64,000 bases of DNA from Bacillota bacterium (GTDB taxonomy: Bacteria > Bacillota > SHA-98 > UBA4971), in assembly GCA_050949175.1 (NCBI GenBank), contig JBMNFG010000011.1:329549-393548 (forward strand). The letters are read 5' to 3'. The notes below the pieces were generated by a model, which was not told the origin of the DNA, did no database searches, and was given only the letters and a program-made list of their open reading frames with translations. Of the stretch, positions 21,181 through 63,803 are shown piece after piece (positions within the stretch are counted from its first letter, which is position 1; every line of letters starts with the position of its first letter). The translations under genes and the position numbers were made by a program.

Positions 21181-21540
21181 TGGTGGAGGCGGCGGGAATC
21201 GAACCCGCGTCCGAAAAGCCAACTCGAAGAGCTTCTACGAGCGTAGCGTAGGGTTTAAGTTTCGCCAAGGAAGCTCTCCTACGCGAGTTCCTCCAGGGCT
21301 ATCCCGTTAAAGTCTTAGCTCAAATCCTCCGAGAACAGAATTTGAACGCATCCTGGTTTATTTGACGCCCGCACCGGCCTCCCAGGAAAAGTCCGGATTG
21401 GACGGCTGCTTTATTTCTTAAGCAGCGTAAGCGTAATTGTTGTTGGCACTTATTGTGCGTTCCACCGTTTTACGAGGTTGGCGGAATCTCGGCTCGCTAC
21501 TCTTGTCGTTGCAACTCCCCGTCGAAACCATAACGCCCCC
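21181..21540 (-). ncRNA. ssrA: tmRNA; tag peptide ANNNYAYAA* at 21447-21418
   Basis: 5' GGGGGCG...TTCGACGGGG; 3' T-arm GGTTCGATTCCCG and CGCCTCCACCA; lies directly downstream of smpB. Confidence 0.97.
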
Positions 21541-46731: not shown

Positions 46732-49212
46732 TTAGATCGTCCCGATCTCCATAATACGGTTCATGTAAGCTTCTCGCAGCGCTTCTGCCTCGTCCGGACT
46801 GGAAGCCTCACTGTAGATGTGGAAGAGCGGCTCTTCCGAATCAGGCAGAACCAATGCCCAGCCTTTTTCGTGGTAAACCTTAATACCGTCTATAAGCTCC
46901 ACTTGCTTGGTGCGGGTCTCATTAATGAGAGTCCTCATTACCTTGCCTTTAGCTTCCCAGGGACATTCCACGCTGCGCTTGCTGATATAAAATTCAGGAA
47001 CCATGGAAACCAATTCTGAAAGCCTGATGCTGTCCCGTGCCATGGTCTCCAGGATCTTTCCAAGAGAAAAGAGGGCGTCAAAAGGCGCCTGAAATCCCGG
47101 GAGGCCTTTTTCTCCTATGAAGATCTTTTCTTCAATAGCCTTCTCCATAACTGACCTGGGATTGGCTCGGGTGCGGACTACGCGTCCCCGGTATCTTCTG
47201 GCCATTTCCTCGATAATTCGCGAAGCTGTAACAGGCACTGCCACAGTAGCGCCTTCCCTGGATTTCAGGACAAGAAGGGACATTAAGGCTGTGAACAGGT
47301 CCTCAGACACCCTGTTGCCTTTTTCATCAACCAGGAGAAGCCTTTCTGCATTGCTGTCAACGATTATTCCGAGATCCGCCTGCTGAACAACGACGGACTT
47401 TGCAAGAAACGATAGAGAATCCAGCATATCCAGGAGGTGTCTTGGCCCTTGTTCTGCATTGCTTTCCCTGTCTGACGTAGATACAGTGCAACCCAGCGCA
47501 GAAAGGAAAGACGGCAGGAGCAAAGAGAGGTTGCCGGGGTCGTAATCTACAACGACTTTAAACTGCTTCTCTCTTATCACATCTACGGAGATGGTCTCGA
47601 GGAGACAGTCTAAGTACTCTTCCATAAGGCGGGTTAGAAAAGCCACTTCCCCGATATCGTCCGGGCTTACCCTGGTAAAGTCCTCGCTGAAGAAGGCATT
47701 CTCGATTCTTCGTTCAGTGGCTTTATCGATATTCATGCCTTTATCGTCAAGGAATTCGATTAAGGCGATATCCGGGTCATAGGGAGAAAGCCGCACGTGC
47801 AGGCCCCCTGCAACTCCCAGGGCTGTAACGGCGTACCGAGTCACAGGTGTGGTGGTACGGCCAACATCGTAGACAGCTGCACCGCCTGAGAGAAGGCCTG
47901 ATGTCAGTGCCCGCTTTATCATCCGGGAAGGCTTGTACGCATCTGAGCTTATAACCACCTGACGCCTCTCTTTGAAGCATGAGCTGTAAGCTGCCCCTAA
48001 TTTGGCTGCGATTTCGGGAGTAAGCTCCACGTTGACAAGGCCTGAGACTCCATACGTCCCGAACAACCGCTTGGACCATTTAGCCCCCCACACCAAGCTT
48101 GTGGTAATGGTTGTGCCTGCGTCAATAACCTTTTCAGGCCATATCTTTACGCCGGGCTTGATAACGGAGCTGCCGCCTACTACAGAGCGAGACCCAATGA
48201 TAGATCCTTCAAATACCGCTGTCTTTGCCTTGAGGCTTACTTTGCTGCAGACGATAGCCCCCCTTAGTTCAGTGTCCTTCCCGAAGAAGGAGTCATCCCA
48301 GAGCACGCTGCGTTTTGCGGAAGCACCGTCGTTTAGGATATTATTGTGTCCGATGACCGTGCTTGAGCCGATCTCCACACCTCGCCTGATACGGCAGAAA
48401 TCTCCGATTATAACAGGGGCATCAAGCTTTGCGCTTGGATGGATTTCAGTGCCTCTTCCTATGTAGATGCCTTTTGCGATTTCTTCTCCCGGAATTCTGA
48501 CGCGTACTAATCCTTGGAGGATATCATAATGGGTCTGGCGGTACTGGTCGATATTACCCACATCACTCCAGTAGCCCTGGGCTACATATCCAAAGAGAGG
48601 CAGGCCTTTCTTTAGAATAAGCGGAAACAGGTTCTTGCTGAAGTCAAACTCAACGCCCGGGTCAAAGAGACGCAACACATCCGGTTCCAGCACATAGATG
48701 CCGGTATTCACCGTATCGCTGAATACCTCGCTCCAACTGGGCTTCTCAAGGAACCTTGTAATGCGGCCGTCATCGTCGGTGATTACGACCCCGTATTCCA
48801 GCGGGCTTGTAACGCGAGTCAGGACGATTGTGGCGATTGCCCCTTTAGCTTTGTGAAACTCCACAGCTTCAGTTAAGTTGATATCTGTCAGCGCATCTCC
48901 TGAGATCACGAGGAAGGTTGAATCCAGCAGGTGTTCACATGCTTTGACACTTCCTGCTGTGCCAAGGGGTGTATCTTCAACAGCGTAATCCATGGAGACT
49001 CCGAATCTTTCTCCTTGGCCGAAGTAGTCCATGATTACTTCCGGCATGTAGTAAAGTGTGGCGAGGATATCGCAGAACCCGTGAAGTTTCAGAAGGTCAA
49101 TGACATGCTCCAGCATGGGGCGGTTCACCACCGGCACCATGGGCTTCGGCCTGTCACATGTAAGAGGTCTAAGCCTTGTCCCTTTTCCGCCTGCCATCAC
49201 TACCGCCTTCAA
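46732..49212 (-). CDS. Sugar-1-phosphate nucleotidyltransferase + hexapeptide (LbH) + phosphomannomutase-like fusion
   Basis: MAGGKGTRLRPLT, FLEKP, YWSDVG, hexapeptide repeats, then an LFGTYG PGM/PMM-type domain. Confidence 0.9.
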   Translation of the reverse strand: MKAVVMAGGKGTRLRPLTCDRPKPMVPVVNRPMLEHVIDLLKLHGFCDILATLYYMPEVIMDYFGQGERFGVSMDYAVEDTPLGTAGSVKACEHLLDSTFLVISGDALTDINLTEAVEFHKAKGAIATIVLTRVTSPLEYGVVITDDDGRITRFLEKPSWSEVFSDTVNTGIYVLEPDVLRLFDPGVEFDFSKNLFPLILKKGLPLFGYVAQGYWSDVGNIDQYRQTHYDILQGLVRVRIPGEEIAKGIYIGRGTEIHPSAKLDAPVIIGDFCRIRRGVEIGSSTVIGHNNILNDGASAKRSVLWDDSFFGKDTELRGAIVCSKVSLKAKTAVFEGSIIGSRSVVGGSSVIKPGVKIWPEKVIDAGTTITTSLVWGAKWSKRLFGTYGVSGLVNVELTPEIAAKLGAAYSSCFKERRQVVISSDAYKPSRMIKRALTSGLLSGGAAVYDVGRTTTPVTRYAVTALGVAGGLHVRLSPYDPDIALIEFLDDKGMNIDKATERRIENAFFSEDFTRVSPDDIGEVAFLTRLMEEYLDCLLETISVDVIREKQFKVVVDYDPGNLSLLLPSFLSALGCTVSTSDRESNAEQGPRHLLDMLDSLSFLAKSVVVQQADLGIIVDSNAERLLLVDEKGNRVSEDLFTALMSLLVLKSREGATVAVPVTASRIIEEMARRYRGRVVRTRANPRSVMEKAIEEKIFIGEKGLPGFQAPFDALFSLGKILETMARDSIRLSELVSMVPEFYISKRSVECPWEAKGKVMRTLINETRTKQVELIDGIKVYHEKGWALVLPDSEEPLFHIYSEASSPDEAEALREAYMNRIMEIGTI

Positions 49213-49285
49213 AGGAATCCTGCCTCCTTTTCTCTGCGCTGCCTCGTTGATAGTGTGTCGCTCGCTCGTGTCGCAGTCGCACTAA

Positions 49286-50569
49286 CTAGCCGCTGTTGTG
49301 CGCAAAGTATCGGGAATACTCGCGAGAATACTCGTGCGGGACAGCCTCCTGCGCCTGAAAGATCCACCTCGGCCTAGTTACCGCCCACGGACTTGCCCTG
49401 TATGCCTTAAGGACTTCGTCGTAAACCCGAGACGTGGATTCAGCTATTATGTCCCAGTTAAACTTAGTTAGAACATCATGTGTTGCATTGGCACGGATTT
49501 CGTCGCACAAGCGCTTGTCTGCAAGGAGGGTTAGGATATTATCCGCAAGTGAACTGGGGTTACCGGGGTAGCATTTCATGCCTGTAACCCCGTGTCTGAC
49601 TACTTCTCCTAACCCTCCTACATCTGAAACCACAACCGGAGTCCCTGATGCCATGGCCTCCAGCGCAGTTATGCCAAAGGGTTCATAGAGGCTGGGCACA
49701 CAGGCCACGTCTGCACACTTATAGAGCTTATTGCGAGTTGGATCATCGACAAACCCTGCGAAGTAAACCCTGTTGTAGATGCCCAGATTGCCGGCATATT
49801 CTTTTAGATATGCATCAGCAGGGCCTTTGCCCGCGACAACCAGTTTAACCTTGTCCCTGTAAGCAAGGACTTTGCAGAACGCATCGAGAAGGACATGGAC
49901 CCCTTTCTCATGCACCAGCCTGCCTATGAAGAAGATCATCTGCTCATCAGGTGCAGCCCATCTTGAACGAAAAGCAACAAGGTCCTCGCCTTCAGGCACT
50001 TGAAACCTGGTTGGGTCTACCCCGTTGGGGATTTGGCGCAGTTTATCTCCGGGAAGCTGAAAGATCCATGATAACTCGCGGCGCATGTGCTCACTGCAGC
50101 ATATGACACGCCACGATTCGAACCCCAGCCACCACTCGACATTACTGATGTAGCGCTGCAGATCATTGTGAAGGCCCCAATTCCGGCCGTATTCCGTGGC
50201 ATGAATTGTACCGACTAAAGGAATGTTAAAAGCATGTTTCAATGCTTTCCCGGCGTAGGCAACTATCCAATCATGTGCGTGCACAAGATCCGCACCCATA
50301 GCAGCCCGTTCAATCCCGCGCTCCATAAGGTTCAGGTTCATCTGCATGACCCAGGTGAGAAAGTCAGGAGGAGAAGGATTGTGAAAAGGAACTCTGAACA
50401 CCCGGACCCCTTCGTCATCCTCTTCTTCGCAGGCATTACTGTGGCCGCAGGTGATAACATCAACATCCACTCCCTGCTTAACCAGGGCTTTCGAAAGGTC
50501 CTCCACATGCCTGGCTATTCCCCCGACCACCCTCGGCGGATACTCCCAGGAAAGCATAATCACGTGCAC
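49286..50569 (-). CDS. GT4-family glycosyltransferase
   Basis: SWEYPPRVVGG, HAHDW, GRLVHEKG, YEPFGITALEAMA. Confidence 0.92.
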   Translation of the reverse strand: MHVIMLSWEYPPRVVGGIARHVEDLSKALVKQGVDVDVITCGHSNACEEEDDEGVRVFRVPFHNPSPPDFLTWVMQMNLNLMERGIERAAMGADLVHAHDWIVAYAGKALKHAFNIPLVGTIHATEYGRNWGLHNDLQRYISNVEWWLGFESWRVICCSEHMRRELSWIFQLPGDKLRQIPNGVDPTRFQVPEGEDLVAFRSRWAAPDEQMIFFIGRLVHEKGVHVLLDAFCKVLAYRDKVKLVVAGKGPADAYLKEYAGNLGIYNRVYFAGFVDDPTRNKLYKCADVACVPSLYEPFGITALEAMASGTPVVVSDVGGLGEVVRHGVTGMKCYPGNPSSLADNILTLLADKRLCDEIRANATHDVLTKFNWDIIAESTSRVYDEVLKAYRASPWAVTRPRWIFQAQEAVPHEYSREYSRYFAHNSG

Positions 50570-50584
50570 TGTATCTCCTCCTTT

Positions 50585-51395
50585 AATGAGCCGCTACGCC
50601 GCTAATAGCCCGCTAATACGCTGCTAATAGCCAGCTGGTTAACTGCGAATAGAGTGCCAAAGATTGCTGTAGACTGCTAGCTGCTAACAGACCGGTAATA
50701 GACGGCTAACAAACCGCTGTTAAACTGCTAACCGACTGCTGACAGATGGCTAACGGACTGCAAAAAGACTGCTAATCGCCCAGTAATGGCCTACCAATAG
50801 GCCTCTTGTGGCCTCTAGCAGGCCGGTAACGGACTGCTGACAGACCGCTAACGGACTGCTGACAGACTGCTAACGGACTGCTGATACCCTACTAATAGGC
50901 GCCTAATGAACCGCCGGCAGACCGGTGACAAGCCGCTGTTAGACTGCTAACGGCAACCTGAGAGACTGCTATCGGACTGCTAATAGCCTACTCATAGGCC
51001 ACTAATGTCCTCCAGCAGGCCGGTAACCGACTGCTGACGAACTGCTAACGACCTGATGATAGACTGCTCATAGCCTACTGATAGTCTCCTAATGAGCCTC
51101 TAGTAGACGGTCAACAGACTGGTGACACATTGCTAACGACCTGCTAATAGATTGCTAACAGGCTCCTAATCAGCGGCTAGCGAACCGGTAATGGACTGCT
51201 GACAGATTGCTAATGGCCTGCTAATGGCCTGCTGCCAGACTGTTAACGACCTGCTAATAGACTACTCATAGCATACCAATAGGCTCCTAATCAGTCGGCA
51301 GTAGGCCGGCAATGAACTGCTGATAGACTCCTTATACACTCAAGGTAAACCGGTAGGGAACCGGTCATAGGCCTCCAATCGACTGCTCATAGACT
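50585..51395. repeat. About 800 bp 11-bp-period minisatellite (GACTGCTAAYR) with higher-order blocks
   Basis: Example run gactgctgaca-gaccgctaacg-gactgctgaca-gactgctaacg; no ORF of 60 aa or more in the track. Confidence 0.88.
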
Positions 51396-51701
51396 ACAAG
51401 ATGTTTTCTGGCCTCAACGGATACCGACACCCGACATCTTTGCAAACTAAGGAAATCTCATAATACCGACTACTACGGCAGATACAAATCGATGCCTTGA
51501 CCTCGGTATGCATTGCCACCTATCCTACGGTCCTTACCACCTCCGGCACCTTCGACAGCGCAGACCATACCTGTTAACTCCCAGCAAGGATAGATGCATC
51601 TCCTGCTTTGTCCAGGTGTACAGATACCCTAGGTGGCTCTGGAAGAGCACGCCTGTTCTTAGGATTTACTCCAAGTCAGGAATTATTCGTAAGTCAGCCC
51701 T

Positions 51702-52240
51702 GTGGTCGAGAATCGCCCACCATTTGGCTGTTTGATGGCAGTTTTTCTACCACAGTTTTGAGCGTAAGCTCTAAAATGGTAGAGTCTCGCCCACCAAGAG
51801 GCTCAAGGGTGGAAGGTTTTCTACCATGATCAGGCGTTAAGGTGGTAGGATATCGACCACCACGCCTCCCAAAATCTTACACATCACGGTTTGGTGGTCG
51901 AAACTCGCCCACATTTTCTGAAAAAGTGGGCGAAAAACTGCCACATTTTCCAAAAACGTGGTAGGAATTCTACCACCTGAGCCTCAAAAAGCTCCCAAAA
52001 CCGGGCTCCAACCTGAAAATGTGGTCGATTCTCTACCGCCTGAGGCAGTTTGGGTGGTTCAAAATCGTCCATTTATGAACGTTTGCTCGAAAAAATCCAA
52101 AAGGGTGGTCGAAATTGAACCACCTTTTTAAGGAAATGTGGCTCAAAATCGCCCATTTATGAGCGTTTGCTCAAAAAAACCGCAAAGAGTAGCCGAAATT
52201 GGTCCACGTTGTCTGCAAACGGTGGTTCAATTTCGATAAC
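51702..52240. repeat. Phased palindrome array, copy 2: 14 units, same orientation as copy 1
   Basis: Units start at 51702, 51735, 51776, 51809, 51842, 51894, 51926, 51958, 52021, 52054, 52105, 52138, 52189 and 52222; spacers align with copy 1. Confidence 0.9.
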
Positions 52241-52284
52241 CGTTCTTAGCTAGATTTGTTTTTGAACGGTTGAGTCAGAGTCCG

Positions 52285-52620
52285 GGTAAAAAAAGCAGCA
52301 AAATCAACAGGAAAGACAGCACAAAATGGAATATCAGAATGCCACAGAACAGACCTCAAAAGAGGCAACAGAAGAAGCAAAAGAAAGAAGCAGGACAGGC
52401 GCCGGAAGATAGAATATGAGAACGCCACCGAAGAGCCAGCAGACGAGATCTTAGAAGAAGCAACAGGAGAAAGAGCAGAAGATAGGAGCAGGAAAGGCTC
52501 TGGAAGATAGAGTACAAGAACGCACAGAACAGGCACCGAAAGAAGGAGCGAAAGAAAGAACAGAAGACAGAGCAGCAGAAAGAACTGAAGGAAGAGCAGG
52601 CGAAAGAAGGGAAACCGTCA
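52285..52620. repeat. Purine-rich (A/G) low-complexity tract with roughly 12-bp periodicity
   Basis: aagaacagaagacagagcagcagaaagaactgaagg-like runs; very few T on the + strand. Confidence 0.6.
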
Positions 52621-52720
52621 GCTAGTCGTAAAGATGGCCGACTAGTCGTAAAGATGGCCAACTAGACGTAAAGATAGCCAACCGGCCGTAAAGATAGCCA
52701 ACTAGGTGTATAGATGGCAG
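52621..52720. repeat. 20-bp tandem repeat (4 copies plus the gene copy) matching the 3' end of oppD
   Basis: actagtcgtaaagatggcca-type units followed in register by actaggtgtatagatggcag, which contains the stop codon. Confidence 0.85.
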
Positions 52721-53778
52721 CGGACTTTGCGTCCGTCATCCATTGTGACAAAAGGCGGCTCAATATTGAAGCACACAGAGTGAGCATCCTTGCAGCGCGG
52801 TGTAAAGCTGCACCCAGGAGGAAGATTGGTAAGGTCGGGAACCTCGCCTTCTACAGGAACAAGTTCGCGCCTCTGGCCTATCTGGGGAATCGATCTTAGA
52901 AGGCCTTGAGTATAAGGATGAAGCGGCGAAGTAAGCACATCGTCGATATCTCCCGACTCTACGATTTGGCCTGCGTACATCACGGCAGCTTTGTGACAGA
53001 ATTCCGCTGCAACGCCCAGGTCATGGGTGACAAGGATTATCGCTGTCCCAAGCTCTTCATTAATCTCACGCATCAAATCCAGCACCTGCGCCTGAACTGT
53101 GACGTCCAAAGCAGTGGTGGGTTCGTCGGCCAGTATAACCTTAGGCCTGCACGCAAGGGCAATAGCAATGAGGATGCGCTGCTGCATCCCACCGCTGAAC
53201 TGATGGGGATACTCCAGATGCCTGTGCTCCGGAGAAGGTATCCCCACCTGCCTTAGAAGGTTCACCACCAGTTCCCGCTCTTTCTCGCGCTCATCACGCC
53301 GAAGGCGCCTGAGAAACCCCGGCAGCAGCCCGTGAACACGAAGAGACTCCGAAATCTGCTCCCCCACTCGGTAAGCAGGGTTCAGGGTCGTCATAGGATC
53401 CTGGAAAACCATTGCGATATCTTTTCCTCGCACGTCCCGCATTTCTGCTTCAGACAGAGTCAGAAGTTCCCTTCCTTCAAACTTAACAGACCCGTTGACA
53501 ATCCGCCCCGGACGAGGGACAAGCCGCATTATCGAAAGCAGGCATGCGCTCTTACCGCAGCCTGATTCTCCCACAATCGCCAGGATGTCGCCTTTCGCTA
53601 ACACAAGGTCGACATTACGCACAGCGCGGACAGTCCCTCGAGGAGTTGGATACTCGGTAGACAGCCCGGAGACCTCAAGGACCCAAGGAGTTTCAGGAGA
53701 CTGTTCATTGTGAGTTGATTTCCCAGATTCAGCTCCGATCAAAGCTCGATGTTTAGTTCGTTTGTTTAGGGTGTCCAT
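52702..53778 (-). CDS. oppD: Oligopeptide/dipeptide ABC ATP-binding protein (OppD/DppD)
   Basis: [31 protein letters not shown]-terminal Cys motif. Confidence 0.92.
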   Translation of the reverse strand: MDTLNKRTKHRALIGAESGKSTHNEQSPETPWVLEVSGLSTEYPTPRGTVRAVRNVDLVLAKGDILAIVGESGCGKSACLLSIMRLVPRPGRIVNGSVKFEGRELLTLSEAEMRDVRGKDIAMVFQDPMTTLNPAYRVGEQISESLRVHGLLPGFLRRLRRDEREKERELVVNLLRQVGIPSPEHRHLEYPHQFSGGMQQRILIAIALACRPKVILADEPTTALDVTVQAQVLDLMREINEELGTAIILVTHDLGVAAEFCHKAAVMYAGQIVESGDIDDVLTSPLHPYTQGLLRSIPQIGQRRELVPVEGEVPDLTNLPPGCSFTPRCKDAHSVCFNIEPPFVTMDDGRKVRCHLYT

Positions 53779-53784
53779 CTGATA

Positions 53785-54003
53785 ACCTCCCTGTTAACCC
53801 TCCTGTTAACGGTCCTGTTGTCCCTCCCGTTAACCGTCCTGTTAACGCTCCTATTAACTCTCCCGCTGACTGTCCGGTTAACCGTCCTGTTAACTGTCAC
53901 TGTCCGTTAACCGCCCTGTTGACCCTCCTGTCAACCGTCCTGTTAATCCTTCTGTTAACCCGCGTGTTGATCCTCCTGTTAACCCTCGCGCTAACCCTCC
54001 TGC
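53785..54003. repeat. 12-bp tandem repeat (about 18 copies), minus strand CAGGAGGGTTAA, matching the oppC end
   Basis: cctgttaaccct units run from the oppC stop (CAG GAG GGT TAG) to the oppD RBS. Confidence 0.88.
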
Positions 54004-54950
54004 AACTTGGGATCCAAGACATCCCTAAGGCCTTCACCTATAAGGTTAATGGCAAGCACCAGAATGACAAGGGCAAGCCCTGGCAGAGTCGCCACCCACC
54101 AGGCATTCAGCATGTAGCGACGCCCATCTGACACCATAGAGCCCCATGCAGGGATCCTAGGCGGGATACCAAGACCAAGGAAGCTCAAAGACGACTCCAT
54201 GACTATCATGTTCCCCATGCGCAGTGTCCCCAGCACCAAGATGGAATGGATTATGTTGGGAAGGATCTCGGAAACCATGATAGCCCAGTCAGATCTACCT
54301 AGCGAACGGGCTGCCTCTACATATTCACATGTCTTCTGCGACATCACCTCAGCCCTGGTCAGCCTGTAAAACTCCACCCAACCTTTAAAGCAAAGTGCAA
54401 AGATGAGATTCCAGAATCCAGGGCCTAACACCGACATCATCCCTATGACAAATATCAGGTATGGGAAGGCCAGCAGAAGATCGGTAAACCTTGACATAAT
54501 CTTGTCAAACGCACCTCGGAAATATCCTGCTATTAGCCCTAACCCTACACCTATCGCCATAGAAATCGCTATCGTCAATACTCCTACAAGAATCGAGACA
54601 CGGGCACCGTACATGATCCTTGTGAGTATATCCCTTCCAAGCTGGTCAGTACCAAGAGGATGCGCACCCGCCAAAGACGGAGCCACGAATCTCTTGGTAA
54701 GAGCGACTTGGTCCGGGCTGTACGGTGCTATGTAAGGTGCCAACACCGCGCAAACGACGTAGATCAGGACCACAATCCCTCCTACGACCGCACCGCGATG
54801 GCTCTTCAGTTTCAGTAGTACGTCCCATATGCTTTGAAGCCTAGACCACGGACGCCTGTATGTCCTGACAAAAGGCCTTTCAAGAGGATAAGCTTCAGAC
54901 CCCCAGGCGTGTGTCTTGATGTCTTCAGCGCGTTCAATGTTTACTGACAT
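53991..54950 (-). CDS. oppC: Peptide ABC permease (OppC/DppC)
   Basis: HPLGTDQLGRD, EYVEAARSLG, ESSLSFLGLG. Confidence 0.93.
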   Translation of the reverse strand: MSVNIERAEDIKTHAWGSEAYPLERPFVRTYRRPWSRLQSIWDVLLKLKSHRGAVVGGIVVLIYVVCAVLAPYIAPYSPDQVALTKRFVAPSLAGAHPLGTDQLGRDILTRIMYGARVSILVGVLTIAISMAIGVGLGLIAGYFRGAFDKIMSRFTDLLLAFPYLIFVIGMMSVLGPGFWNLIFALCFKGWVEFYRLTRAEVMSQKTCEYVEAARSLGRSDWAIMVSEILPNIIHSILVLGTLRMGNMIVMESSLSFLGLGIPPRIPAWGSMVSDGRRYMLNAWWVATLPGLALVILVLAINLIGEGLRDVLDPKLQEG

Positions 54951-55141: not shown

Positions 55142-56158
55142 CTACAGGGTTAGCTTTGGATTGAGATAAGTGTAAATAATATCCGTGGTAAGATTCATCA
55201 AAACGAATGTCATGGCGTAAATCATAACCGCCGCTTGAACCACCGGATAATCCCTGGCAAATATCGCATCTACGACCACGCGTCCCAGGCCGGGCCATCC
55301 GAAGATGGTCTCTACAATCATGTTTCCTCCAAGCAGCGTCCCCACCTGGAGCCCGACGACTGTCACCGTTGGAATGAGCGCATTTCGCAACGCATGCTTT
55401 ACTACAATGACAAACTCGGGCACACCTTTAGCCTTGGCGAACAGGACGTAGTCGGTCTTTAACGCTTCAAGCATGCTGGATCTCGTAACTCTGGCAACGA
55501 TAGCTGCCACACCCGCTCCCAAAGTGATGGTGGGAAGTGCTAGATGCCTCAACGCATCTTTCAGCGCCTGAATATCCCCGGCAATCAAAGCGTCAAGCGT
55601 CAAAAGCCCGGTTACAGCAGCCGGCTCCATTCCATAGGTAATCCTGCCTGATGTCGGAAACCAGCCGAGCCTTAAAGAGAACACGATAATCCCGATTATG
55701 CCCAGCCAGAAAGCGGGCATGGATATCCCCAGGAACGATGCGGTCATTCCGACACGATCAATGACCGAGTTCTGGTGCCTCGCAGAGGCGATTCCCAGGG
55801 GAATACCTACTACAAGGGCGAAAAGCAGCGCAAACATTGCCAGCTCAATAGTGGCTGGGATGGCTTCGAAAATAATCTCTCTCACAGGACGGGATCTCTG
55901 AATCGAGTACCCCATATCGCCTCGAACAAGCCTTCCCAGATACCTTGTGAGCTGCACATGAATGGGTTTATCCAGGTCAAACTCGGCTCTCAGAGACTCG
56001 ATCTCCTCAAGAGTCACTCCGCCTGCTTCGCCCATCATGATGTCTACAGGATCCCCTGGGATCATTCGCATGAAAAGAAATGCGCATATTACAACACCAA
56101 GCATTATGGGGATTGCAGCGATTATGCGTTCTAGTATCTGTACCTGTGTTCGGGTCAT
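55142..56158 (-). CDS. oppB: Peptide ABC permease (OppB/DppB)
   Basis: IPGDP, PATIEL, DYVLFAKAKG, FGWPGLG, RDYP. Confidence 0.93.
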   Translation of the reverse strand: MTRTQVQILERIIAAIPIMLGVVICAFLFMRMIPGDPVDIMMGEAGGVTLEEIESLRAEFDLDKPIHVQLTRYLGRLVRGDMGYSIQRSRPVREIIFEAIPATIELAMFALLFALVVGIPLGIASARHQNSVIDRVGMTASFLGISMPAFWLGIIGIIVFSLRLGWFPTSGRITYGMEPAAVTGLLTLDALIAGDIQALKDALRHLALPTITLGAGVAAIVARVTRSSMLEALKTDYVLFAKAKGVPEFVIVVKHALRNALIPTVTVVGLQVGTLLGGNMIVETIFGWPGLGRVVVDAIFARDYPVVQAAVMIYAMTFVLMNLTTDIIYTYLNPKLTL

Positions 56159-56189: not shown

Positions 56190-57770
56190 TTACCTCACAG
56201 AATAGCCTGCTTCGCGCAATAGGGCCTTAGCCTGTTCAGGATCATACGGATAAGGCTCAAGGCTTGGATCAAATCCGAACCCGCTGGGCAAGAACGCAGA
56301 TGCCAATCTGATACCGTTCCCGCCGTAGATAGACGTAAGGATTGCATCCCAGTCCACCGCGTAATTCAGTGCGCGCCGCACCCTGACATCGTCAAAAGGA
56401 GGCTTCCGGCAGTTCATTTCTACGATATATACACGCGTTCCGTCTACATTCTTTACCTGAATATTTCTGTCTGCAGCAAGGGCACTTGCAAGATCCGGCG
56501 GAACTTGCTGGATAATGTGGACTTCGCCTGCTTTCAAAGCAGCCACACGCACTGTCGGCTCAGGCATCATCCGGAAGATCACCTGTCTTGCAGGTGCGGC
56601 CCCTACCGGAGGGATCTCCGGCGAACCACCGTAGTATTCGTCGAACCTTTCCAACACTATTTGATCGTCAAGCCGTCCTTCCTTAAACTTGAAAGGGCCT
56701 GCGCCAACCGGTTTCGCCGCAAACTCAAGATCCCCGACTTCTTCGATATAGTCCTTGGGTACAATCTGGAAATGCACCAGCGCTTGCGGGAATATCGGGA
56801 ACGGGTTGGCAAGGGTGAACTTGACCGTATATTGGTCAACCTTTTCTACCTTCTCCAGCGGGCCGAGGAGCCCCTTACGCGGTGATGATTGCCCTGCAAT
56901 CGCTCCATCTTCGAGGATCCGCCGAAACGTAAACACTACATCATCTGCATCAAGCGGTTCACCGTTATGGAACTTCACGCCTTCGCGGATCTTGAAGATA
57001 TAGACGTCGCCAGATGGAACAGTCCATGACTCAGCTATTTCAGGAACCACCTCACCGTCCCAGGTCCGAGTTACAAGCCCGTCAAATATGTTGCGAATAA
57101 CGGTTTCCGTGTCTCTGTCTCGATACGCACCGGGATCCAGTGTTAAGATCTTGTCTGCCCTCATTCCTACAACGATAGTATCGCCCCGAGTAATGCCAAC
57201 ATCATGAAGATTTATTCTGGAATCCATTGAAGGCTGCCAGTCTGTGATCTCGACTCTCGCAGCTTCGGTTTCTTTCAACATGTACCCGAAAATCCACGGC
57301 GCATCATCATAGATAATCCTCTGAGCCTTGAAATAGGCCTCCTTGCGCTGCTCCTGGTCTGCAGTCATCTGAACCAGCGTAAGGAGCTCATCCAGTTCAG
57401 GATTGCTGTACCCTGAATAGTTGCCTCTGTCTGCTGTGGCAAGTTTAGGTATTACGAGGTCAAAGGGATCAAAGTATGCGCTACCCCAGTCGCTGAGCCA
57501 TATCTGCCGTTCACCTTCAAGAGCACGCTCTCTTAGAGCACTCCACTCCCATATGCGGACTTCGGCCTCTACTCCGATTTCACGCAGATATGCAGCGATT
57601 ATTTCTGCCTCATCAGCGCGATCAGCTTGAGCATCGATTATTAAGGAAAGGGTCTTCCCTGCCGCCTGGACAGAGTGATCAATTGCAACCCCTGCAGAAA
57701 CCAGGAAAACGCACACGACAGCCAGGGCTGCAAAACGCCTCAATACGGCATAACCTCTCCTAGATCCCAT
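56190..57770 (-). CDS. Family-5 peptide/nickel ABC substrate-binding protein, circularly permuted
   Basis: FDGLV...PEIAESW, REGVKFHNG, PVGAGPF, VRRALNYAVD, YDPEQAKALL and GNYSGYSNPELD are all present, but in permuted order. Confidence 0.9.
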   Translation of the reverse strand: MGSRRGYAVLRRFAALAVVCVFLVSAGVAIDHSVQAAGKTLSLIIDAQADRADEAEIIAAYLREIGVEAEVRIWEWSALRERALEGERQIWLSDWGSAYFDPFDLVIPKLATADRGNYSGYSNPELDELLTLVQMTADQEQRKEAYFKAQRIIYDDAPWIFGYMLKETEAARVEITDWQPSMDSRINLHDVGITRGDTIVVGMRADKILTLDPGAYRDRDTETVIRNIFDGLVTRTWDGEVVPEIAESWTVPSGDVYIFKIREGVKFHNGEPLDADDVVFTFRRILEDGAIAGQSSPRKGLLGPLEKVEKVDQYTVKFTLANPFPIFPQALVHFQIVPKDYIEEVGDLEFAAKPVGAGPFKFKEGRLDDQIVLERFDEYYGGSPEIPPVGAAPARQVIFRMMPEPTVRVAALKAGEVHIIQQVPPDLASALAADRNIQVKNVDGTRVYIVEMNCRKPPFDDVRVRRALNYAVDWDAILTSIYGGNGIRLASAFLPSGFGFDPSLEPYPYDPEQAKALLREAGYSVR

Positions 57771-57798
57771 GTCATCAGCCTCCTTACCCTAAGTTATC

Positions 57799-57984
57799 TC
57801 ACAGATCCTCGAGTCTTTCATGCGGACATCGCATGGAGAGCTCTCTTATGAAGGCCATGTGTGAATGTCTGATACGCCCGTTCCGTGTGATCAGCTTGTG
57901 CAAGCTGTCAACTGAACCATCCCATGGCATCTCTTGTTGATGACTTGTGCGAAAGCCTAATAAGCTCCGGTTTGAACGCTTCAC
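57799..57984 (-). CDS. Possible 61-aa small protein in the riboswitch leader
   Basis: AGGAGG 5 nt before GTG; stop 28 nt before the binding-protein start; no recognisable family. Confidence 0.35.
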   Translation of the reverse strand: MKRSNRSLLGFRTSHQQEMPWDGSVDSLHKLITRNGRIRHSHMAFIRELSMRCPHERLEDL

Positions 57985-58201
57985 GTTGCCCTCCTAATAC
58001 GAACGTCCATTAGCATTTGGATACGGAGATCCATGAATCATTACAGAATGCTTCAGGGCATCCCGTCAGAGAGCGAATAATTCGGAAGCTCGGCAAGACC
58101 CGCTCCAAGAAGGCCGTCATTCTAAAACGTGTTCCGATAATGTCCGCCTTGTAGCGTACGGTGGGGGATTGTAGCGATCACCAGGGAGAAAAAGCGATCG
58201 C

Positions 58202-58236
58202 AAAACTAAATTACCCAAGGGGCCTCCTTGGGTAAA
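58202..58236 (-). terminator. Intrinsic terminator serving as the riboswitch expression platform
   Basis: Minus strand ttacccaagg-aggcc-ccttgggtaa followed by tttagtttt. Confidence 0.8.
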
Positions 58237-58246
58237 AGTTGGCGCC

Positions 58247-58383
58247 CCCCTCTCAACGCTTACGAGGTTAGCTGACGGACTCGGGCCGAAGGAGCTAGCC
58301 CTACCTGCCTTACCGGCAGGATTCGCCCCCTTACTGGGACTTCGGTTCCCCCGCTCTTCCTTACGGAAGATTCAGCGGCTGCG
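58247..58383 (-). ncRNA. c-di-AMP (ydaO/yuaA) riboswitch
   Basis: Minus strand GCTGAATC...GGGGGAACC...GGGGCGAATCC...GTAGGG...CCCGAGTCCGTCAGCTAACCTCGTAAGCG, the conserved ydaO segments, with GTAA-capped stems. Confidence 0.93.
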
Positions 58384-58480
58384 TTTGTCCCTTAAGTGTC
58401 CCTTAAGGTGAATCGCAGCATCAACAGCGCATATGACCTGTTATTCATGCACGTCACGCTATACTACTGTTGCATTATTT

Positions 58481-58509
58481 ATATTAACGCTGGAACTTAC
58501 ATGTGTCAA
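58481..58509 (-). promoter_or_regulatory. Sigma-A promoter for the riboswitch-opp transcript
   Basis: TTGACA-17 bp-TAATAT on the minus strand. Confidence 0.65.
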
Positions 58510-58616: not shown

Positions 58617-58684
58617 GTTTTGGAAGAGTAACTACACACTCACTATGAATGGGGAGAACTCCACTTGATGGGAGGTTCAACACG

Positions 58685-59743
58685 ATGCAGAAACCCCTTG
58701 TCGCCACAGATAATCTCAAAAAGCACTTCGTGATTGAAGAAAGCCTGCTTGCCCGCTACCTTGCCGGTGCAAAAAACCGCGTCGTCAAGGCGGTGGACGG
58801 CGTAAGCATTGAGATACTTCCCGGAGAAACCCTGGGCCTCGTAGGGGAATCAGGATGCGGCAAAAGCACCCTTGGCAGGACAATAGTAGGGCTCTACGAG
58901 CCTACCGAAGGTGATGTGCAGTTTCAAGGCAAATCTCTCTTCGGTGATGACTCGATACCTGAGAGGGACTTAAGAAAGCAAGCGCAGATAATATTCCAAA
59001 ACCCATACAGCTCGCTGAATCCAAGACACACAGTGCGCCAGATAATCGGTGTGGCTCTGGCTCTTAGAGGTGTACCTCCGCATGACAGGGAAGAGGAGAC
59101 TGTCAGCTTGCTGATGCGAGTTGGATTAAGCCACGACCATATAGACAGGTATCCCCACCAGTTCAGCGGAGGACAGCGTCAGCGTATAGGCATTGCACGG
59201 GCACTTGCCACAAATCCCAAGTTCATTGTGGCAGATGAGCCCCTGTCATCACTGGACGTTTCCGTACAGGCACAGATAATCAACCTCCTGCAAGAGCTTC
59301 AGGAGGATTATGGTCTCACTTATCTTTTTATCACGCACGATCTCCGTGTCGCGTACCATATGAGCCACAGGATAGCCGTAATGTACTTAGGACAGGTGGT
59401 TGAGATGGCAGACACCGACGCACTCTATGAGAATCCTTTGCACCCTTATACACAGGCGCTCCTATCTGCAATCCCTTCTGTTGAGCCGTCTCGCAGAAGA
59501 AACAGGATTCTTCTTGAAGGGACGGTTCCGACGCCAATCGATCCTCCGAAAGGATGCCGCTTCCATCCGCGATGCAGGCACCGTATGCCCATCTGCGAAC
59601 AAGAGGAACCGGAGCTTCTAATTGTCCCAAGCCCTGTGGAGAACGGGAACTCAGAGACCGGCCCGGCACAGAGACACAGTGAAAAGAGGGAGGATCGATT
59701 ACGAACCGGACACTTAGTCCGCTGTCACTTGCATTTTGGTTAG
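58685..59743 (+). CDS. oppF: Oligopeptide ABC ATP-binding protein (OppF/DppF)
   Basis: [46 protein letters not shown]; start at the ATG behind GGGAGG. Confidence 0.92.
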
Positions 59744-59909: not shown

Positions 59910-60875
59910 CTAACTGTCTTTCATCGTGGTTTTGTCTGCCTCAGATCCTGCTCTTCTATAAGCCTCATCAAAGTAAACAGCGTCAATCTCGAATCCCACA
60001 AACGAGACTCCCAACCTGGCGCAGGCAATTGCTGTATTACCTAAACCCATAAAAGGGTCGAGGACAAGCCCTGTCTTGTCCAGGCCATGGAGCCGGATAC
60101 ACATTTCAGGAAGGCGAGGCGGAAAAGTCGCAGGGTGAGGACGTTCCTTAATCCGGCTCTGGATAGTCTCATACGGAATGAACCAGGTGTTGCCGCGGCA
60201 TCTGAGGTCTCTCTTCGCAGCCTTCCACCGCTTTACATTGGATTTATCTTGATATGGGACGCCGATGGCGAGCCGGTTCAATGGCACATTCCCGGACTTT
60301 GTAAAGTGAAATATGTATTCGTGACAATCATTGACAAAGCGGTTGCTGTTTATCGGCTTATAGTGGCCTATTGCCACATCGGATACAATAGCGCCGTAGT
60401 CACCGACATCCTCTTTCGCAACTGCAATGGATTTAATCCAGTGGATGACATTTTGCAACTTGAATATGGGCCTTAGGACTGTTGCCACCTCAAAAGGAAC
60501 CCACGGGTCAGTGGGTTTTGAGCCGATGTTGAGGAAAAACGATCCCTCGTCAGACATGGCATCTTTCACAGCCTCAGCCCACTTGACTGTCCATGCCAGG
60601 TACTTATCCCTAGCAACCGTATCATCGTATGCCCCGTACTCGATCCCGAGGTTATAGGGAGGCGACGTAACAACTACATCGACGCTCCCAGGTTTAACAA
60701 ACTTCTTTATGCCAGGGATGCAGTCTCCCAGCACAAAATCGAGCACCACGTCGGACCCGGGATCAGATCCAACTTGTCCTCTTGGCTCCACACCTGATGT
60801 ACAGCCTCCTGTACTGGCTGAGGCCCGTGATGTGTCCGGTATTCTTATGGATTTTCGTACGACATCCTTCGGCAT
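59910..60875 (-). CDS. Beta-class amino-DNA methyltransferase (probably N4-cytosine), orphan
   Basis: Motif IV VVTSPPY precedes HPATFP and motif I LDPFMGLG. Confidence 0.9.
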
Positions 60876-61001
60876 TCTTTATTTCATCTCTTTGCCGGAC
60901 CCTGTTTTCCGGAAAGTGTCATCTACTATAAGAAGACTTAACCATAAAAAGATCTAACCACAAAAAGGTTTAACCGCTCACCGGCACCATGCATCTTAAT
61001 C

Positions 61002-63803
61002 TTATCCTGCATCCAAGACTTCGTGCCCGCCGGTGGACAGCCCCTTCCATACCAGCTTCAAGACTTCTGCAGTGATGGTAGGAATGAAGCCTGCCATGAT
61101 AACCAGCCTCCACTCTCTCGCTCCAAGGGATACCGTATCAAGGAACTGGGAGAGCCAAGGCATCTCTATGCTGGCAATAAGCAGCACAGCCGAAACGGCC
61201 ACTGCAGCAAGAAGCTGCGGATTCTCGTTGGGCTTCGCGTGCCATATTGGCCGCCTTTCTGACCGGGAACTCAAAGCTCTTAGCAGCTCAGACAGGCCAA
61301 GCGCCGCAAAGGCTGAAGTGCGAGCCAGCTCCCACGAAGCACCTGCTCTAAGCAGTGTCACATAAGGCCACAGCACAGCAACGACTATCGACATGCCGAC
61401 TATCAGCATTCTAATGATAATCGGTTTCGATAGGATGCCTTCTTTTGTATCCCTCGGCGGCATCTCCATGATACCTTCCTCTGATGGGTCCATTCCAAGG
61501 GCCAGCGCGGGCAGCCCGTCTGTGACCAGGTTTATCATGAGGATTTGGACAGGCGCCAGCGGATTTCCGAGCTTGGCCAGGATCGCCACGAGGAATATCA
61601 GGAGTTCCCCGATGTTACAGGACAAAAGATAGATGATGGATTTTCGTATGTTCTCAAAGATGATCCTGCCTTGTTCTATTGCTGCGACTACACTTGCGAA
61701 GTTGTCGTCAGTCAGCACCATGTCAGATGCGCTTTTTGCAACCTCGGTGCCTGTCAGGCCCATAGCAACTCCGATATCAGCGGCGCCAAGGGCAGGAGCG
61801 TCATTCACCCCGTCTCCCAGCATAGCGACGATTTCGTCATGCTTCTTCAAGGCGTGGACGAGCCTAAGCTTGTGCTCAGGAGATACTCTTGCATAAACCC
61901 TGACACCCTTTGCAATTGCCTCAAGCTCAGCCTGATCCATCTTGTCAAGTTCACTTCCGGTGACAATCCTCGCACCCTCCTCGAACATGCCGAGCTCCTC
62001 AGCGATTGCCTTGGCAGTGTGGGGATAATCACCTGTCACCATAACCGGAGTGACACCGGCTTTCTTTGATATCTTTATCGCTTCTACAACCTCCGGACGG
62101 ACCGGGTCGATCATGCCGACCATGCCTATGAAGATCAGATCATTCTCTATCTCCTCCGGGGATGGTTTCGAAGGGACGCGCTCCACTCTCTTTGTGGCAA
62201 ATCCCAGAGTCCTCAGGCCTCGCTTTGCCATTTCATCTACAAGGTCAAGCATGGATTTGACCCTGTCATCTGAGAGCGGACGAATCTCGGTGCCGTCAAA
62301 GTATGACCTGCTCAAAGAGAGCAAAATGTCAGGTGCACCTTTAACAAAGGCTACAGTATCTCCTTTTGCGCAAGGGCCCCACTCCACATCGGGACAGTGC
62401 AAGGTGGTCATGCACTTCCTGGCTGAGTCAAACGGGATTTCTCCTACACGTGGAAAGAGTGATTCGACAGTAGCCTTATCTCTGCTTCCTTTAGCTGCAA
62501 GGGTCACAAGCGCACCTTCAGTAGGATCCCCTACAACAGACCATATAGTCGTTACTCCGCCTGCTGTCTGCCCTTCTTCTTCAATAATGGAAGCATCGTT
62601 ACAACCTGCAGCAACATCCAGCAGCCTCAAGAGTTCGACATCAGCTTCCACCTTATCCTCATTTTCAATAAACTCGCCGTAAGGCGCATAGCCTGTTCCG
62701 GTTACCTGGATATGTCGCCCGGAGGCCAGATAGACCTCTCTTACAGTCATCTTGTTCTCCGTCAATGTCCCGGTCTTGTCAGAGCAAATGTAGGTGACAC
62801 ACCCAAGAGTCTCAACAGCAGGCAGTCTGCGGATAATCGCGTTGACTGCGATCATCCGCTGCACACCGATGGCAAGCACTATAGTGACTACAGCAGGCAA
62901 TCCCTCAGGTATGGCAGCCACTGCCAGGCTAACCGCTGTCATGAACATGTTGAATACAGGCTCGCCGCTCATCCAGCCCAGTACAAATACCAGACCGCAA
63001 ATGCCCAGCGCCCCAAAGCCCAAGAACTTTCCGAATTCCGCCAGCTTCTTTTGGAGCGGAGTATCTTCTTGGATCTGGGATGAGACCATCTCTGCGATTT
63101 TCCCGATTTCAGTTGCCATTCCCGTGGACGTAACAACCCCGGCACCACGTCCGTAGGTAACAATTGTTCCGAGGTACGCCAAGTTTGCCCTGTCACCCAG
63201 AGATGTCTCGCTGTCAAAGACGCGTGATGCGTCCTTCTCTACAGGGACAGACTCCCCAGTCAATGCAGATTCGTCTATCTGCGTATTCACAGTCTCAATA
63301 AGCCTTAAGTCAGCAGGGACGAAATCACCTGCCTGAAGAAGCACCACATCCCCTGGGACCAGTTCTTCTGACGAAATCTTCTGGACCCGGCCTTCCCGTA
63401 TTACAGTTGCCACCGGAACTGCCATCTTCTTCAGGGCTGCAAGGGCTTTACCTGCCCGCCCTTCCTGCACAACACCCATGATCGCATTGAGAATCAGAAT
63501 CGCCAGGATTACGCAGGCATCGACCCACTCTCCCATAACCGCTGCAATAACCGTTGAACCAACCAGTATGAGAACAAGGAAGTCCTTAAACTGATCAATG
63601 AACATCTGAAGCAAGGTCTTGGGCTCTTCTTCTGCAAGGGCATTGGGACCGTAGCGTTCCAGCCTGGCTGAGGCCTCAGAGCTCGTGAGGCCTTCCTTTC
63701 CGTCAGTCTCCAGGGCCTTAAGAGCCTCGTCTATATTCATCCTGTGCCATTCGTGACCGATGTCACCGTCTGAATTGTTATCCAAAGGCGTCACCGCCCC
63801 CAT
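61002..63803 (-). CDS. Type IIA (SERCA/YloB-like) Ca2+-transporting P-type ATPase
   Basis: [39 protein letters not shown]. Confidence 0.95.

Follow-up and report, generated by a model that had tools for sequence, protein, structure and literature searches.

The locus described here raises a question that is simple to state: when a bacterial gene encodes a familiar substrate-binding protein (SBP) with its parts in swapped order, is this a natural circular permutation that still works, or an accident of assembly or of gene decay? The gene lies in a 64,000 nucleotide (nt) stretch of DNA from a Bacillota bacterium (GTDB lineage Bacteria; Bacillota; SHA-98; UBA4971; assembly GCA_050949175.1, contig JBMNFG010000011.1, positions 329,549 to 393,548 of the forward strand), the whole of which we refer to as the window. 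Its product belongs to cluster C of the SBPs, within the Pfam family SBP_bac_5 (PF00496; 299.3 bits against a cut-off of 32.4, E 5.6e-89). A sequence-only reading of the window had described this product as a circularly permuted OppA/DppA protein, and the inverted alignments to profile hidden Markov models and to solved structures in the PDB bear out that description. A natural circular permutation of a family-5 SBP is thus supported. We refer to this protein and its permuted relatives as type 1, and it is very probable, in our judgement, that it is a functional, naturally permuted binding protein of an ATP-binding cassette (ABC) importer under riboswitch control.

The Pfam match is split into two stretches, the better of which places residues 240-524 on profile positions 1-279 of 368. 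The sequence-only reading had expected two such stretches in inverted order from an hmmscan search; this is what was found, and there was no single colinear alignment to the profile. Similarly, against Escherichia coli DppA (1dpp_A), residues 238-523 fall on chain residues 43-340 and residues 54-161 on chain residues 364-474, and the other PDB matches made in two stretches have the same inverted order. A profile built from 56 type-1 members gave the same picture, and no colinear chain was present among the 60 best PDB sequences listed in either the single-sequence or the profile search. Furthermore, in the PDB matches and in those to the 11 NCBIfam models listed (11 of 11), residues ~190-524 fall on the start of the reference. 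Thus, type 1 is not colinear with either the family profile or the solved members. All of its strong matches are to cluster C chains, and its identity to solved cluster C SBPs is ~25-32%. In the comparison with DppA, the portion that comes first in type 1 (piece A) has an i-Evalue of 1e-08 and the portion that follows (piece B) one of 3.6e-42; because canonical relatives also match both pieces at 42-50% identity, the inverted order is far above chance.

Both breakpoints are sharp in the alignment with the closest canonical relatives (Table 1). In those relatives the chain ends ~4-6 residues past 'INLHDV' and the mature chain starts at 'GGTLVVG'; judged from this alignment, the type-1 junction is a head-to-tail fusion of the two with essentially no added linker. 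The landmark 'GDTIVVG', which had been placed at about nt 57185, starts at residue 197 and nt 57182, and the C-terminal ending '...YDPEQAKALLREAGYSVR' had also been read correctly. At the site of the new termini, canonical proteins carry 'YDPxKAxxLLxxAGY', a loop, and the strand 'GF-x-F-x-LD', the loop being 2-4 residues long in four of seven relatives aligned. The permuted proteins end 1-4 residues past 'AGY', and their mature chain begins at the following strand ('GKTLSLIID'). Since residue 197 of the model falls on residue 1 of DppA and residue 526 on residue 343, the new termini correspond to about DppA residues 343-345; by the published domain boundaries of DppA they presumably lie in the lobe opposite to that of the canonical termini. 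The putative Sec signal peptide region is modelled by AlphaFold2 (AF2) as a helix over residues 7-26 followed by a stretch of low confidence over residues 27-35. A simple regular expression for a lipobox found such a motif in 37 of 119 full-length type-1 homologues.

Table 1. Features of the window and of the second permuted gene in the same genome (aa, amino acids).
Feature	Position	Strand	Details
tmRNA gene	21181-21540	-	RF00023, 203.6 bits
Fused NTP_transferase and phosphomannomutase/phosphoglucomutase gene (826 aa) adjoining glycosyltransferase GT4 gene (427 aa)	46732-50569	-	
DppD/OppD-type ATPase	52702..53778	-	ABC_tran and oligo_HPY
DppC/OppC-type permease	53991..54950	-	OppC_N and BPD_transp_1
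DppB/OppB-type permease	55142..56158	-	BPD_transp_1 and BPD_transp_1_N
Circularly permuted family-5 SBP (type 1)	56190..57770	-	526 aa and stop, reading frame uninterrupted
Piece B of type 1, residues 197-526	56193..57182	-	canonical N-terminal two thirds, DppA 1-343 (VIA-align)
Junction of type 1, residues 187-200	57171..57212	-	'...INLHDVGITR-GDTIVVG...'; old C-terminus joined to old mature N-terminus
Piece A of type 1, residues 39-196	57183..57656	-	canonical C-terminal third, DppA ~345-507; matches C-terminal parts of canonical relatives
Putative signal peptide of type 1, residues 1-~37	57660..57770	-	by inspection: basic n-region, hydrophobic core, 'VQA/AG' (cleavage at the slash)
Terminator-like hairpin and T-run	58211..58235 (or 58201..58235)	-	directly after aptamer; 10-pair stem, 5 G-C pairs, T-rich tail
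c-di-AMP riboswitch aptamer, ydaO type	58243..58387	-	RF00379, 89.5 bits against gathering score 38, full model 1-134
Sigma-70-like promoter	58481..58509	-	TTGACA, 17 nt spacer, TAATAT; 10 of 12 consensus matches only
Second Dpp/Opp-type ATPase, divergent, upstream of riboswitch	58649..59743	+	ABC_tran and oligo_HPY
N6/N4 DNA methylase (321 aa) and P-type cation-transporting ATPase (933 aa)	59910-63803	-	beyond divergent ABC ATPase
Permuted family-5 SBP (type 2)	contig C9:361288-362976 = L082:2789-4477	+	562 aa, clear signal peptide; two permease genes follow

Structure prediction agrees with a single folded body. The AF2 model, made from a 56-sequence alignment, has a mean predicted local distance difference test score (pLDDT) of 91.4 and a predicted template modelling score (pTM) of 0.85, with low confidence only at residues 1-4 and 27-35; at the junction the pLDDT is 89-96. 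With VIA-align, residues 197..526 superimpose on residues 1..343 of 1dpe (Z 26.1, root-mean-square deviation, rmsd, 2.6 Å over 321 residues) and residues 195..526 on residues 3..323 of YliB/GsiB (1uqw_A; Z 27.6, rmsd 1.7 Å over 318). Overall, residues 195-526 match residues 1-~343 of solved SBPs with Z of 24-27.6, and the predicted model thus has the cluster C fold over the N-terminal two thirds of the canonical chain. All 50 of the 50 VIA-align rows are confined to residues 190-526, and Foldseek covers 341-396 of 526 columns (TMq 0.42-0.56). Both programs are sequential aligners that cannot follow a permuted chain, so that partial coverage is what a permutant would be expected to give. From the alignments, the two crossings between lobes that canonical proteins have should be kept, and the ordinary open-and-close mechanism would therefore be expected; altered docking or ligand gating through the new termini, which the sequence-only reading had put forward, is not favoured.

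Type 1 is not a single odd gene. Among the best 120 database relatives listed (55-100% identity), 118 are colinear with it in a single local alignment that spans at least 92% of the query, and the remaining two are shorter partial proteins; the full-length colinear homologues for which a BLASTP search had been suggested are thus abundant. All 121 proteins classified by the order of their pieces (P0001-P0121) are permuted, and 16 contigs were seen to carry the identical protein. Among the named sources are Thermaerobacter subterraneus DSM 13965, T. marianensis and Carboxydochorda subterranea. When one genome per GTDB species was searched, 152 stretches were found to encode a relative, and the best 80 were kept for all locus counts given here. 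All 80 encode proteins colinear with type 1 (49-83% identical), and they belong to genomes from Bacillota (Limnochordales, Fermentithermobacillaceae, Thermaerobacter, Moorella mulderi DSM 14980 and Symbiobacterium) and from Deinococcota, Desulfobacterota, Armatimonadota and other groups.

Where did this order come from? A library clustered at 50% identity gave 78,044 matches at E <=0.001, of which the best 150 were classified by piece order. Five of these are permuted like type 1 (P0122, P0123, P0126, P0134 and P0181), two are fragments that start with piece A, six hold piece B only, and 137 are canonical, the best at 42-50% identity. For the trees, the permuted rows were rearranged to canonical order. 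The FastTree input held 34 permuted rows (P0001, every fourth of P0002-P0121 sized 480-580 aa, and four representatives) and 127 canonical rows, 10 of the 137 having failed a length filter of 470-600 aa. One clade (support 98) took in 33 of the 34 permuted rows. An IQ-TREE quick search under LG+C20, with 12 permuted rows and the 34 best canonical rows, placed 11 of the 12 in one clade (support 99). The trees are unrooted, and canonical order is taken as ancestral because it is the order of all solved members listed and of the great majority of relatives. Tandem duplication, fusion and loss of the outer parts form the classical path to circular permutation. Type 1 would have arisen by one rearrangement in an ancestor that, among surviving proteins, is closest to canonical SBPs (42-50% identity), most likely through tandem duplication, in-frame fusion and loss of the outer parts, and the permuted form would then have been kept under purifying selection in many Bacillota as well as in Deinococcota, Desulfobacterota and Armatimonadota.

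The genetic setting of the gene is that of an importer. The open reading frame (ORF), which had been described as intact and in its operon, is indeed uninterrupted over 526 aa and adjoined by the genes for two permeases and an ATPase. The two permease clusters are present in 73 and 70 of the 80 related loci, and the divergent upstream ATPase also recurs: in related loci (e.g. L004, L006, L007 and L010), nine ORFs of the ATPase cluster lie upstream on the minus strand. Upstream of the operon lies a riboswitch aptamer for cyclic di-adenosine monophosphate (c-di-AMP); the genome (2.0 Mb, 92% complete) has no other RF00379 match. From its sequence, the terminator-like hairpin that follows the aptamer is a putative OFF-switch expression platform. 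In the leader between terminator and SBP start (57771-58210, ~440 nt) the ORFs are short and do not exceed 61 aa; a further promoter-like site, weaker than the first, lies within it at 58146..58119. An aptamer is found upstream on the same strand in 31 of the 80 related loci (batch by batch, 17/17, 11/17, 3/18, 0/18 and 0/10), and all 31 encode relatives that are at least 59% identical. A side observation concerns L006, a record titled as a Betaproteobacteria metagenome-assembled genome (MAG), which carries a 73%-identical type-1 SBP and a c-di-AMP riboswitch, as in the Bacillota loci; this combination suggests a mis-binned or mislabelled contig, or a recent transfer.

Could type 1 be primarily a sensor module? 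In such an explanation the free C-terminus in the far lobe would serve for fusion or docking to signalling proteins, and the operon copy would signal instead of, or besides, taking part in transport. Fusions of this kind do exist: P0123, P0272 and P0273 (1763-1892 aa) are hybrid histidine kinases with an N-terminal type-1 module, colinear at 94-96% coverage, behind which come SBP_bac_3, HisKA, HATPase_c and receiver domains. However, these amount to three clusters against more than 120 stand-alone forms, and in the window the gene heads an operon for a complete ABC importer. Furthermore, canonical SBPs also serve sensors, as stated in one source (PMC8050422), so that permutation is not needed for such a role. 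We therefore regard a primarily sensory function as unlikely. One of the three fusions comes from a contig of 6.9 Mb.

A second explanation is decay: a deletion within a tandem pair could have fused the 3' portion of one SBP gene with the 5' portion of its neighbour, giving a product that is translated but non-functional. Tandem multi-SBP proteins do occur, as in P0160 (1016 aa, two copies), P0165 and P0185 (four copies). They are only 29-32% identical, which rules them out as ancestors of type 1, and they show no more than that such fusions arise. The pattern of selection is not that of a pseudogene. In comparisons with two orthologues of 83% identity (a third was saturated at synonymous sites), the ratio of non-synonymous to synonymous substitution rates (dN/dS) is 0.10 for the gene as a whole. 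By region it is 0.13-0.15 (piece A), 0.08-0.09 (piece B), 0.12-0.17 (across the junction) and 0.05-0.09 (at the new termini), about 0.10 in every part, the junction included. Reading frames are intact in all 80 related loci, down to 49% identity, a signal peptide or lipobox is always in front, permease genes follow in most loci, and the AF2 model is confident as a single body. Taken with these data, a decaying fusion is highly improbable.

The junction itself is present in independent material. The 801 bases across it were found in 19 runs from 11 studies of digester, biogas, bioreactor and sludge metagenomes; 14 of these runs are flagged as a possible source of the assembly and five, from two studies, are not. 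In four of four runs, one contig spans 56100-57900 with 0 differences and 0 gaps, so that the support across nt 57185 for which the sequence-only reading had called was obtained, with the qualification that these contigs, being near-identical, may include the source DNA. A misjoining of two SBP gene fragments in assembly or binning is, for practical purposes, refuted: the genome is indeed of metagenomic type (14 contigs), but the same order occurs in the 80 loci of different species, including a complete MAG chromosome (L014) and the draft of the isolate M. mulderi DSM 14980 (L047), and in Thermaerobacter and Carboxydochorda isolate proteins, unflagged runs hold the junction, and the junction sequence is among the best-conserved parts of the type-1 family.

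Set against our reading of type 1 as a functional permutant with one origin, under riboswitch control, are several observations. First, P0181 stands apart from the permuted clade in the free trees, with an IQ-TREE branch of 2.5 units and no settled position. It shares the same two breakpoints and the junction motif with the type-1 clade, and when all 12 permuted rows were constrained together the log-likelihood was 12.28 above that of the free search, with a p value of 0.80 in the approximately unbiased (AU) test. A separate origin of P0181 was set aside on these grounds, and a single origin of the type-1 permutation, which the AU test does not reject, is the simplest reading. Second, a search for longer proteins gave 88 matches, with no close tandem-duplicate intermediate among them; the only colinear ones were the three sensor-kinase fusions. 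The duplication route is therefore put forward as a model. Third, piece A folded alone gave a pLDDT of 83.2 and a pTM of 0.50, with weak matches only (Z <=8.2), in which family-5 chains were met in their C-terminal thirds (e.g. 5u4o 424-483, MppA 377-434 and DppE 364-423). The predicted model supports a correct placement of piece A in the whole body, and this placement rests on the confidence of AF2 (pTM 0.85), a limit that belongs on the same side of the balance.

The remaining points concern regulation and ligand. Between aptamer and start codon there are 472 nt that are unaccounted for, and 49 of the 80 related loci have no riboswitch, among them all Deinococcota and Desulfobacterota members; the riboswitch therefore does not define the type-1 family. 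Some of these negative loci have little or no upstream sequence (none at all in L048 and L078). The NCBIfam equivalogs (DppA, OppA, NikA, GsiB and SapA) were matched at best by DppA, with 170.8 bits against a cut-off of 1005, and all 11 NCBIfam models listed score far under their own cut-offs. Assignment of a ligand by homology thus failed, as no equivalog was approached. Finally, the DppA aspartate that is mutated in 8z1z (D436 in the precursor, D408 in the mature protein), which we take to bind the amino terminus of the peptide, aligns to Ala98 in type 1. The family motif around this alanine is DWGS[AS][YTF]F[DS]P, and an alanine at the position of the DppA aspartate makes classical peptide binding doubtful.

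What, then, might type 1 carry? Among the 80 related loci, a Peptidase_C26 gene (gamma-glutamyl hydrolase family) adjoins the operon in 20, a GntR/UTRA regulator gene in 13 and an AtuA-family gene in 10. These neighbours occur in riboswitch-less relatives (L037-L080), and they were typed as BLAST clusters through two, two and one representatives, respectively, so that they are hints only; they point weakly to compounds of a gamma-glutamyl or peptide-like kind. Several Deinococcota loci (L067, L068, L069 and L077) have a tRNA gene immediately upstream, on the other strand. In PMC10117814, c-di-AMP riboswitches are described as controlling osmolyte transporter genes, and c-di-AMP as needed in Listeria to restrain Opp-mediated oligopeptide uptake, which affects turgor. 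Since the riboswitch class controls osmolyte transporters and Opp affects turgor in Listeria, the type-1 importer may well be off at high c-di-AMP and its substrate may add to the solute pool. A full-text literature search, outside which most subscription journals fall, found no published pairing of a ydaO riboswitch with a peptide or oligopeptide transporter.

Putting these elements together, the type-1 protein would be secreted and would consist, after its signal peptide, of the canonical last third (the second half of the far lobe and the C-terminal tail); the chain would then pass through the near-linker-free fusion of old C- and N-terminus and end in the short loop after the 'YDPxxAxxLLxEAGY' helix. 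Most likely it would act as an ordinary Venus-flytrap that hands its ligand to the two permeases. The c-di-AMP riboswitch and then the terminator would control transcription of the operon in this genome and its closer relatives, and uptake would be shut down at high c-di-AMP, as it is for other importers of osmolytes and potassium. A probable substrate is a small solute, peptide-like or of gamma-glutamyl type, that would add to turgor, a suggestion to be taken lightly.

A second permutant was found in the same genome. Searching with the two pieces (tblastn) gave two further family-5 loci, of which one (contig C5, 509 aa) is canonical, with a single Pfam stretch that places residues 74-429 on profile positions 2-366. 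The other, which we call type 2, is permuted at a different place (Table 1; residue numbers here follow a 545-aa reading). Its residues 18-315 fall on AppA 212-503 in one stretch and its residues 351-541 on DppA 38-234 (precursor numbering), and in Pfam its residues 16-245 fall on profile positions 144-365. The mature chain begins at the canonical segment past the 'YWG' turn (~residue 205) and extends as far as the old C-terminus; the old N-terminal ~200 residues come next, and the protein ends '...NPIYWRLPAN'. Among the 120 relatives listed, 113 are colinear over at least 92% (41-99% identity) and seven are shorter partial proteins; most are from Bacillota and Limnochordia. No Rfam model reached its gathering score at the loci of type 2 and of the canonical SBP. 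Of the three family-5 SBPs in this genome, two are permutants. Types 1 and 2 are 25-30% identical to each other, and type 1 is 42-50% identical to its canonical relatives; for this reason the two permutations are most likely independent. A wider reading can be built on this, namely that at least two independent permutations of the OppA/DppA fold, in two different loops, have become stable, widespread families in Limnochordia-like Bacillota, that type 1 is the binding protein of the sole operon of this genome under a c-di-AMP riboswitch, an importer of a peptide-like or gamma-glutamyl osmolyte that is off at high c-di-AMP, and that the moved tether and free C-terminus are adaptive (through membrane anchoring or sensor-kinase fusion) and not neutral. 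We offer this combination tentatively, as it is more doubtful than probable.

Elsewhere in the window, the 2.1 kb at 50570-52700 contain no ORF of at least 110 aa. They hold ~800 nt of strict 11-nt periodicity (50590-51390), a series of ~23-nt palindromic GGTGG...CCACC units (51700-52240), purine-rich degenerate repeats, and three 20-nt tandem units beside the ATPase gene of the operon; this repeat region had no match in Rfam or to plasmids. The adjoining genes for an NTP_transferase fusion and a GT4 glycosyltransferase could, from their sequences, serve sugar-nucleotide or glycoside (possibly compatible-solute) synthesis.

How does type 1 compare with described systems? The solved cluster C SBPs (DppA, OppA, NikA, GsiB/YliB, AppA, MppA and AccA) belong to the same Pfam family and have the same permease and oligo_HPY ATPase partners. 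They keep the canonical order, whereas type 1 has a rotated chain with the old termini fused and an alanine in place of the ligand-contacting aspartate of DppA. Closer are the canonical metagenome relatives P0124, P0125, P0127, P0128 and P0131, which are 42-50% identical over both pieces and share the C-terminal 'INLHDV', N-terminal 'GGTLVVG' and 'AGY' loop motifs, but have the canonical order and thus align to type 1 in two stretches. The nearest precedent for the rearrangement itself is Tp0684 (MglB-2) of Treponema pallidum, a circularly permuted glucose-binding SBP for which a 'Cluster Bc' subclass was proposed; in that source (PMC4990184), the bilobed fold and ligand binding are kept, the family occurs in spirochaetes as well as in Gram-positive bacteria, and its authors discuss a connection with membrane tethering. 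Like type 1, it is a natural circular permutation of an ABC substrate-binding protein. It is set apart as a cluster B protein (a type I sugar binder) with other cut sites that has been solved and biochemically characterised, whereas type 1 belongs to cluster C and is known from sequence and model; the likeness is taken as an analogy, not as shared membership. With the ydaO riboswitch regulon the type-1 operon shares a full aptamer and a terminator-like hairpin upstream of a transporter operon; it differs in that the gene controlled is a permuted family-5 SBP. A full-text search, which did not extend to most subscription journals and supplements, found no paper that describes a naturally permuted family-5 or cluster C protein, or a permuted OppA, DppA or NikA; neither for type 1 nor for type 2 did a solved structure come up, and the type-1 proteins carry the plain database name 'peptide ABC transporter substrate-binding protein'. 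As far as we have found, a permuted subclass of cluster C is real, widespread and apparently undescribed.

In summary, this work adds to the sequence-only reading a widespread family, riboswitch control and a second permutant cut elsewhere in the same genome; a single ancient origin, strong selection and sensor-kinase fusions further raise type 1 above the level of one odd gene. Cluster C binding proteins are among the best-studied bacterial uptake receptors, and all solved members listed share one chain order. The type-1 and type-2 clades show which loops of the three-domain fold accept new termini, and this tolerance is of direct use in the engineering of binding-protein biosensors, where circular permutants are made by design. 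Because canonical sisters exist at 42-50% identity, the type-1 clade is also a clean natural case for the study of how permutations evolve, and one that annotation blind to domain order hides. Finally, the close riboswitch link, seen in 31 of the 80 loci, provides a testable lead to a new c-di-AMP-controlled solute importer in little-studied thermophilic and anaerobic-digester Bacillota.

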